From assembly GCF_016026235.1 (NCBI RefSeq), contig NZ_CP065613.1: DNA of 64,000 nt; one strand, given 5' to 3'. Made by a program: the position numbers and the translations under genes. Below, piece after piece: positions 57,489 to 57,578 of this stretch (position 1 is its first letter; every line of letters begins with the position of its first letter). The notes below the pieces were generated by a model. It worked only from the letters and a program-made list of their open reading frames with translations. It was not told the DNA's origin and did no database searches. Source of the DNA: Escherichia coli. Lineage in GTDB: Bacteria; Pseudomonadota; Gammaproteobacteria; Enterobacterales; Enterobacteriaceae.

Positions 57489-57578
57489 TCAGGAGTGGTT
57501 TTCGAGGTAAAGGGCAGCCATGACGATAATCGCCGCCATAATCAGAAATCCTATCAGGATGTAAAATGCTTCTGCCAT
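57489..57578 (-). CDS. Candidate 29-aa single-transmembrane small protein (unannotated, hypothetical)
   Basis: ATG preceded by GGGAATAACC; reads MAEAFYILIGFLIMAAIIVMAALYLENHS, with a 21-residue hydrophobic core; ends 4 nt after the ybdR stop on the opposite strand. Confidence 0.35.
   Translation of the reverse strand: MAEAFYILIGFLIMAAIIVMAALYLENHS

Follow-up and report, generated by a model that had tools for sequence, protein, structure and literature searches.

The window (the whole 64,000-nucleotide stretch of Escherichia coli DNA that was analysed) carried, in the region studied, the E. coli gene order ahpF-uspG-ybdR-rnk-rna-citT. The features found at the ybdR-rnk interval and next to it are listed in Table 1.

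Table 1. Features at the yldA locus; positions are counted from the first nucleotide of the window
Feature	Position	Strand	Remarks
ybdR remnant	56658..57485	+	5'-truncated pseudogene; stop codon at 57483..57485, 3 nt from the yldA stop
yldA CDS	57489..57578	-	29 codons plus TGA; V22A allele of E. coli K-12 b4734
Shine-Dalgarno-like GGGAA	57584..57588	-	6 nt before the yldA ATG
rnk-yldA spacer, 137 nt	57579..57715	-	examined by promoter scan, alignment of 33 spacers and RNA fold
Hairpin AGAGGATGC-N4-GCATCCTCT, then TTTAC	57661..57682	-	about 35 nt after the rnk stop
rnk (nucleoside diphosphate kinase regulator)	57716..58126	-	upstream same-strand neighbour; syntenic with yldA
rnk leader (Rfam RF01771)	58172..58280	-	upstream of rnk; 124.9 bits

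On the minus strand, an ORF was read from an ATG at 57578..57576 to a TGA stop at 57491..57489 (ATG GCA GAA ... CAC TCC TGA), and its translation was MAEAFYILIGFLIMAAIIVMAALYLENHS. The coordinates and translation given for a hydrophobic 29-codon ORF in the first-pass annotation were borne out, as was its placement in the ybdR-rnk interval, convergent with ybdR and with the two stops 3 nt apart. The Shine-Dalgarno-like sequence claimed before the ATG was also found: the 12 nt 5' of the start codon were GTGGGAATAACC and contained the GGGAA core. In the alignment of orthologs, a purine-rich GGGGA, GGAA, or GGG was kept at the same distance from the ATG. A longer ORF of 62 aa (57489..57677) was present in the same frame, and its N-terminal extension was unconserved. 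Since the extension was unconserved while the ATG and the Shine-Dalgarno sequence were conserved, the 29-aa protein was taken as the defined product.

Comparison with E. coli K-12 (NC_000913.3) showed that the counterpart of this ORF is yldA (b4734, YP_009518757.1, 'protein YldA'), located at 643330..643419 on the minus strand. The window and K-12 genes were 1 nt apart (GTC to GCC), a change that gave V22A and left 28 of the 29 residues identical; the flanks shared 99% nucleotide identity. Both the V22A and the K-12 alleles are already public as 'small membrane protein YldA', the window allele being present on 451 contigs, and yldA is annotated in FDAARGOS_943 (NZ_CP065615.1) with the product WP_000796528.1. 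Aligned over residues 1–29 of 29 in each case, the window protein scored 69.8 bits on the Pfam model PF23689 'YldA-like' (cut-off 27) and 52.8 bits on the NCBIfam model NF041476 'small membrane protein YldA' (cut-off 45). The score, the locus, the 29-residue length, and the pattern E3...A21-V22-L-Y-L-E26 all agreed with the YldA family except for V22, which is Ala in the window; this position was Val in 35 of 36 orthologs and aligned with the invariant V27 of the small membrane protein YoaI.

The first-pass annotation had stated that no annotated gene was known here. This was incorrect: yldA (b4734) is annotated in K-12, PGAP calls it across E. coli, and Pfam and NCBIfam models exist. Since 2018 the gene has been named and annotated and its product detected by experiment, and it is now called automatically by modern pipelines. 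A genuine small membrane protein gene was recognisable from the raw sequence at first reading.

In the published work of VanOrsdel et al. 2018 (Proteomics 18:1700064, PMC6001520), an SPA tag was added at the 3' end of 80 chromosomal small ORFs, and 36 of the products were detected by immunoblot in LB cultures. YldA (ybdR / rnk, 643330-643419, MAEAFYILIGFLIMAAIIVMAVLYLENHS) was among the detected proteins listed in Table 1 of that study, the detection concerning the K-12 allele. Epitope tagging at the native locus, one of the checks proposed for the ORF, had already been published with a positive result. An earlier tetracycline ribosome-profiling screen had also picked up 13 proteins of this set, and YldA was not one of them (PMC6001520). 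ExcludonFinder lists the pair ybdR-yldA among convergent overlaps of transcription, observed in 50% or more of the RNA-seq samples (PMC12288877). Under anaerobiosis, yldA belonged to a cluster of 100 genes whose induction by NaF depended on the dose; the cluster also holds envelope-stress, osmotic, and PhoPQ genes (PMC10100675). A literature search for the function, localisation, topology, or partners of YldA found none; it found no paper connecting YldA with YoaI, and no overexpression toxicity or depolarisation data for YldA.

The conservation of yldA was investigated at 80 species-level loci of the Enterobacteriaceae, which were anchored on Rnk and searched 3' of rnk by tblastn and an ORF scan. 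A YldA-like ORF of 29 codons was found at 34 of the 80 loci, always on the rnk strand; the genera included Escherichia, Citrobacter, Enterobacter, Lelliottia, Leclercia, Kosakonia, Phytobacter, Pseudenterobacter, and others. The orthologs started 126–147 nt after the rnk stop, with two outlier loci at 230 and 310 nt. The 29-codon ORF is far beyond chance expectation.

The 36 distinct coding sequences were all exactly 29 codons long. Their summed column entropy was 19.4, 14.5, and 34.1 at the first, second, and third codon positions, respectively, the third-position value being about twice that of the other two. The pooled pN/pS was 0.40 and the median pairwise dN/dS was about 0.24 for these 36 sequences. 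The check on conservation and substitution pattern proposed in the first-pass annotation was answered in favour of the ORF, with the 29-codon frame kept at 34 species loci and a median dN/dS of 0.24. Residues M1, E3, A21, L25, and E26 were invariant in the YldA orthologs, and I7, A16, V19, V22, L23, and Y24 were at least 90% conserved; the consensus was MxExLxITLxFLIxxAIIVxAVLYLERHW. Conservation is at the amino-acid level, and selection acts on the peptide and not on the RNA or on the act of translation.

In evolutionary terms, yldA is linked to rnk and does not depend on ybdR; E. coli has two deep haplotypes of it, and other genera have lost it repeatedly. Losses were found in Salmonella, the C. 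freundii group, Kluyvera, most Kosakonia, and some Enterobacter; the role of yldA, whatever it may be, is dispensable in many lineages. At the locus of Enterobacter hormaechei subsp. hoffmannii (L042:3411-3560), the leader with its Shine-Dalgarno sequence GGGGACG was kept and the CDS was precisely deleted; the deletion joins the yldA leader to the ybdR end, a clean lineage-specific gene loss.

A search of 1.84 billion representative proteins with the YldA profile returned only 48 clusters. All of these were YldA-like or mis-called longer ORFs, except for one YoaI ortholog (P0048), and no new distant family was obtained from this search. The YldA family, as delimited by these matches, is a small one and does not extend beyond enterobacteria-like sequences.

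When the locus was compared by megablast with 5426 complete E. coli genomes, two arrangements emerged. The order rnk-yldA-ybdR-uspG, with a K-12-type YldA, was present in 3600 of the genomes, with yldA among the annotated features. The order rnk-yldA-uspG, without ybdR, was present in 1817 of the genomes and carried a divergent, type-2 YldA (MSEALGITAFYIFIAAIIVAAVLYLEQRW) that was 48% identical to the K-12 type. Type-2 YldA fell below the Pfam gathering score (22.9 vs 27), and PGAP still names it YldA. With both types counted, nearly all of the complete E. coli genomes have yldA annotated by PGAP. Comparison over the rnk-uspG interval (L002:3412-3770 with window 57489..57715) indicated that E. 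coli carries two deep haplotypes at rnk-uspG. One protein of 67 aa (P0016) was composed of the first 19 residues of type-2 YldA (MSEALGITAFYIFIAAIIV), a translation of the K-12-type leader, and a full K-12-type YldA; its sequence suggests that the two E. coli haplotypes are joined in some genome, by recombination or in tandem.

Among the species loci, yldA and ybdR were both present at 12, yldA alone at 21, ybdR alone at 10, and neither at 33. Presence and absence of the two genes were independent (Fisher p = 0.31); a functional tie of yldA to ybdR was therefore rejected, and yldA is tied to rnk and not to ybdR. Where both genes were present, their stops were 2–10 nt apart across species; where ybdR was absent, uspG came 110–246 nt after yldA on the same strand.

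In the window, 507 bp of the K-12 sequence (641991..642497) was missing, with the junction at 56656/56657. The deletion takes 97 nt 5' of ybdR together with the first 137 codons and leaves a promoterless pseudogene. No obvious microhomology was seen at the junction, and among the 5426 complete E. coli genomes it was spanned in one piece only by FDAARGOS_943 (NZ_CP065615.1), at 100% identity. Because the promoter and 5' end of ybdR are deleted, convergent transcription should be absent in this strain; where ybdR is intact, the convergent yldA and ybdR transcripts overlap.

These data bear on the alternative that the act of translation and not the peptide matters, through protection of the rnk 3' end or interference with ybdR, or that the ORF is translational noise. 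The tight packing of the ORF between rnk and ybdR, the reported excludon-type overlap (PMC12288877), and the repeated gene loss would agree with it. However, five residues were invariant and six nearly so, the length was fixed at 29 codons, dN/dS was about 0.24 with third positions free, yldA persisted where ybdR was absent, and its product was homologous to the functional protein YoaI, all of which make this alternative most improbable.

The spacer between rnk and yldA was examined for signals. A consensus sigma-70 scan upstream of yldA gave no convincing site in the window or in the type-2 E. coli haplotype. Elements resembling a -10 box that were picked by eye in the spacer alignment were inconsistent across lineages, and no promoter was assigned. 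yldA may be transcribed by read-through from rnk, or from a weak or activator-dependent promoter, and its expression probably relies at least partly on transcription from rnk.

The RNA fold of the spacer had a z of -3.5. In all Enterobacteriaceae loci inspected, a hairpin of the form AGAGGATGC-N4/5-GCATCCTCT was followed by TTTCCG, its stem being nearly invariant and its loop variable. Since the hairpin was also present in species without yldA, it belongs to rnk, of which it is probably the terminator, with a poor T-tract, or a 3' stabiliser. A plain intrinsic terminator would not usually combine an invariant stem sequence, in place of covariation, with a poor T-tract. In the K-12-type leader, a 7-bp UUAUUCC/GGAAUAA stem can sequester the Shine-Dalgarno sequence. 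As a conserved feature this second hairpin was rejected; it had no positional counterpart in other lineages, and RNAalifold gave no consensus structure. A further terminator-like stem from the consensus scan (58209..58181) was part of the rnk leader.

The 29-aa product had a mean Kyte-Doolittle hydropathy of 1.60. The N-terminus of YldA is short and acidic (M-x-E). A hydrophobic helix of about 21 residues follows, and then a juxtamembrane tail that is conserved; the tail read V-L-Y-L-E-[RNQ]-[HR]-W in most orthologs and ended in ENHS in the K-12 type. The product had been proposed as a small membrane protein or a type I toxin-like peptide; the first proposal was right, the ORF being a genuine gene for a single-transmembrane small protein, and the second is unsupported, with no match to a toxin family or an antitoxin sRNA.

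As a type I toxin-like peptide, YldA would have its translation curbed by an antisense RNA, from the ybdR 3' end or from an unannotated sRNA. Like the type I toxins TisB, Ibs, Ldr, Hok, ShoB, DinQ, and ZorO, YldA is a short hydrophobic single-helix peptide encoded between genes, and its length of 29 aa and its one hydrophobic helix recall TisB- or Ibs-type toxins in particular. The stop of the convergent ybdR lies only 3 nt from that of yldA in genomes of the K-12 type, overlapping transcription has been reported (PMC12288877), and the 7-bp hairpin of the K-12-type allele can sequester the Shine-Dalgarno sequence. However, that hairpin was not conserved in register and had no RNAalifold consensus structure, and a conserved long structured 5' UTR of the kind found with type I toxins was missing. 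Neither the window protein nor the 34 orthologs matched a toxin family in Pfam or NCBIfam, no Rfam antitoxin sRNA was found in 57300..58300, and no promoter-like site was seen on the plus strand across yldA. The gene ybdR was missing from 21 of the 33 species loci with yldA, and from 1817 E. coli genomes that carry yldA, which excludes a role for ybdR as a dedicated antitoxin. In addition, yldA was single-copy, in fixed synteny, and under purifying selection across genera, whereas typical type I loci are multi-copy and patchy, and tagged YldA accumulates in normally growing cells (PMC6001520). A toxin-like role is considered very unlikely.

The second-best NCBIfam match of the window YldA was the YoaI model NF041475 (17.5 bits, E 0.0031). 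This score was below the cut-off of 45, and YldA is therefore a paralog and not an ortholog of YoaI. The YoaI model was matched by all 34 YldA orthologs tested (best E 1.2e-8); of the other small-membrane-protein models in the 18950-model library, none was matched by more than 3 of them. Alignment of the YldA family with E. coli YoaI by hhalign gave a probability of 91.5% (E 8.5e-7) and placed YldA 2–28 on YoaI 7–33, in a fixed register in which YldA residue n corresponds to YoaI residue n+5. In the reverse comparison, of YoaI with the YldA model, the register was again the same (E 0.035); E. coli YoaI did not reach Pfam PF23689. On an HMM built from the YldA alignment, YoaI scored 18.5 bits. 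This score was reached by none of 20000 sequences after full (composition-only) shuffling, by 2 of 20000 when the TM core was shuffled and both polar termini were kept, and by 5 of 20000 when the whole C-terminal SVLLIERTG was kept.

Sequences intermediate between the two families were found. The cluster P0048, with the core MNDPAFFDTLCITAVFLVIASALVMSVLYLERRW, scored 67.7 bits on the YoaI model, above the cut-off, and had the synteny of YoaI (DUF441/yeaL, gene, tRNA_edit/yeaK - NUDIX - DUF444/yeaH - PrkA/yeaG); it also scored 37–38 bits on the YldA model (E ~1e-9) and carries a precomputed Pfam YldA match. A bridging YoaI ortholog in the yeaL/yeaK/yeaH/yeaG context (L084:4001-4138; GCA_018906695.1, JAGRYU010000017.1) matched both models and had the YldA-type tail SVLYLERRW; its called start, giving 45 aa, is probably 11 codons too far upstream. 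The cluster P0047 scored nearly equally on the YldA and YoaI models (38 vs 34 bits). The YldA and YoaI families are thus homologous and linked by intermediates. This homology is statistically well supported, although only 29 mostly hydrophobic positions underlie it and the E. coli YldA-YoaI pair is weak when taken alone (17.5 bits).

YoaI (b1788, 34 aa, NF041475) and YldA are both single-pass small membrane proteins. Near the N-terminal boundary of the helix both have an E, and both have I-T; the C-terminal half of the helix carries a small residue and then V, and the cytoplasmic boundary carries L-x-[LI]-E-R. The YoaI invariant residues S26, V27, and E31 aligned with A21 (invariant), V22 (35 of 36; Ala in the window), and E26 (invariant) of YldA, respectively. 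YldA differs in being without the 5-residue N-terminal extension MNDQM of YoaI. The loci also differ: yoaI lies between yeaK and yeaL (K-12 1874078..1874182), and yldA lies between ybdR and rnk, outside the yeaK/yeaL synteny.

Background on YoaI came from Vellappan et al. (bioRxiv 10.1101/2024.09.13.612970). This inner-membrane protein binds EnvZ, a sensor kinase, in a two-hybrid assay and raises EnvZ-OmpR output. E31, in its cytoplasmic tail, is required, since E31A and E31Q abolish both EnvZ binding and activation. To the known gene yldA, the present analysis adds only sequence evidence that YldA is a YoaI paralog in which the critical Glu is conserved. The YoaI homology and the conserved Glu provide a concrete, testable lead for the uncharacterised YldA.

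The preferred reading, with a probability of roughly 85%, is that the ORF is yldA, a gene already known to be expressed, and that its 29-residue product spans the inner membrane once and probably modulates a larger membrane protein. The YoaI homology and the positive-inside rule point to an N-out / C-in topology, in which the N-terminus would face the periplasm and the tail containing E26 would face the cytoplasm. As with YoaI, the helix and the invariant Glu26 of YldA probably serve to bind a larger inner-membrane protein, whose activity the binding would alter. The most specific guess, offered tentatively by analogy with YoaI, is that the partner is a sensor histidine kinase, EnvZ or another; by analogy with other small membrane proteins, a transporter or enzyme complex would be an equally possible partner.

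Instead of modulating a kinase, YldA could also serve a membrane complex that has no signalling role, such as a transporter, an oxidase, or an efflux pump, as its accessory subunit or stabiliser, comparable to KdpF, CydX, AcrZ, or MgtS. Among the roles documented for bacterial small membrane proteins this one is the commonest (review PMC12648545), and the conserved helix core (I7, A16, V19, A21, and V22) fits helix-helix packing. No transporter or oxidase gene is linked to yldA, however, its neighbours rnk, ybdR, and uspG all encoding soluble proteins, and YoaI, the one homolog that could be detected, has a sensor kinase as its target (bioRxiv 10.1101/2024.09.13.612970); such a subunit role is possible but rather unlikely. 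Within the preferred reading of a YoaI-like modulator, the fullest version would be that YldA is a YoaI paralog that arose within the Enterobacteriaceae, was placed 3' of rnk, and tunes a two-component sensor kinase, EnvZ or a different one, through Glu26; in this detailed form it is possible but rather unlikely. If true, a second small protein, regulated differently from YoaI, would feed into envelope or osmotic signalling.

A promoter or PhoB box common to yoaI and yldA was looked for and rejected; the upstream regions had no similarity, and the PhoB box of yoaI (CTGTCATCAAACTGCCAT) had no counterpart at yldA. The unrelated upstream regions and the lack of a PhoB box at yldA indicate that the regulation of the two genes differs; if the mode of action is shared, YldA and YoaI respond to different inputs. 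Both genes abut the stop of an unrelated convergent gene, with a gap of 0 nt for yeaK/yoaI (L083:6079-6183) and 3 nt for ybdR/yldA (57485..57489), and these shared abutting 3' ends may be a coincidence or reflect a preference for overlapping 3' ends.
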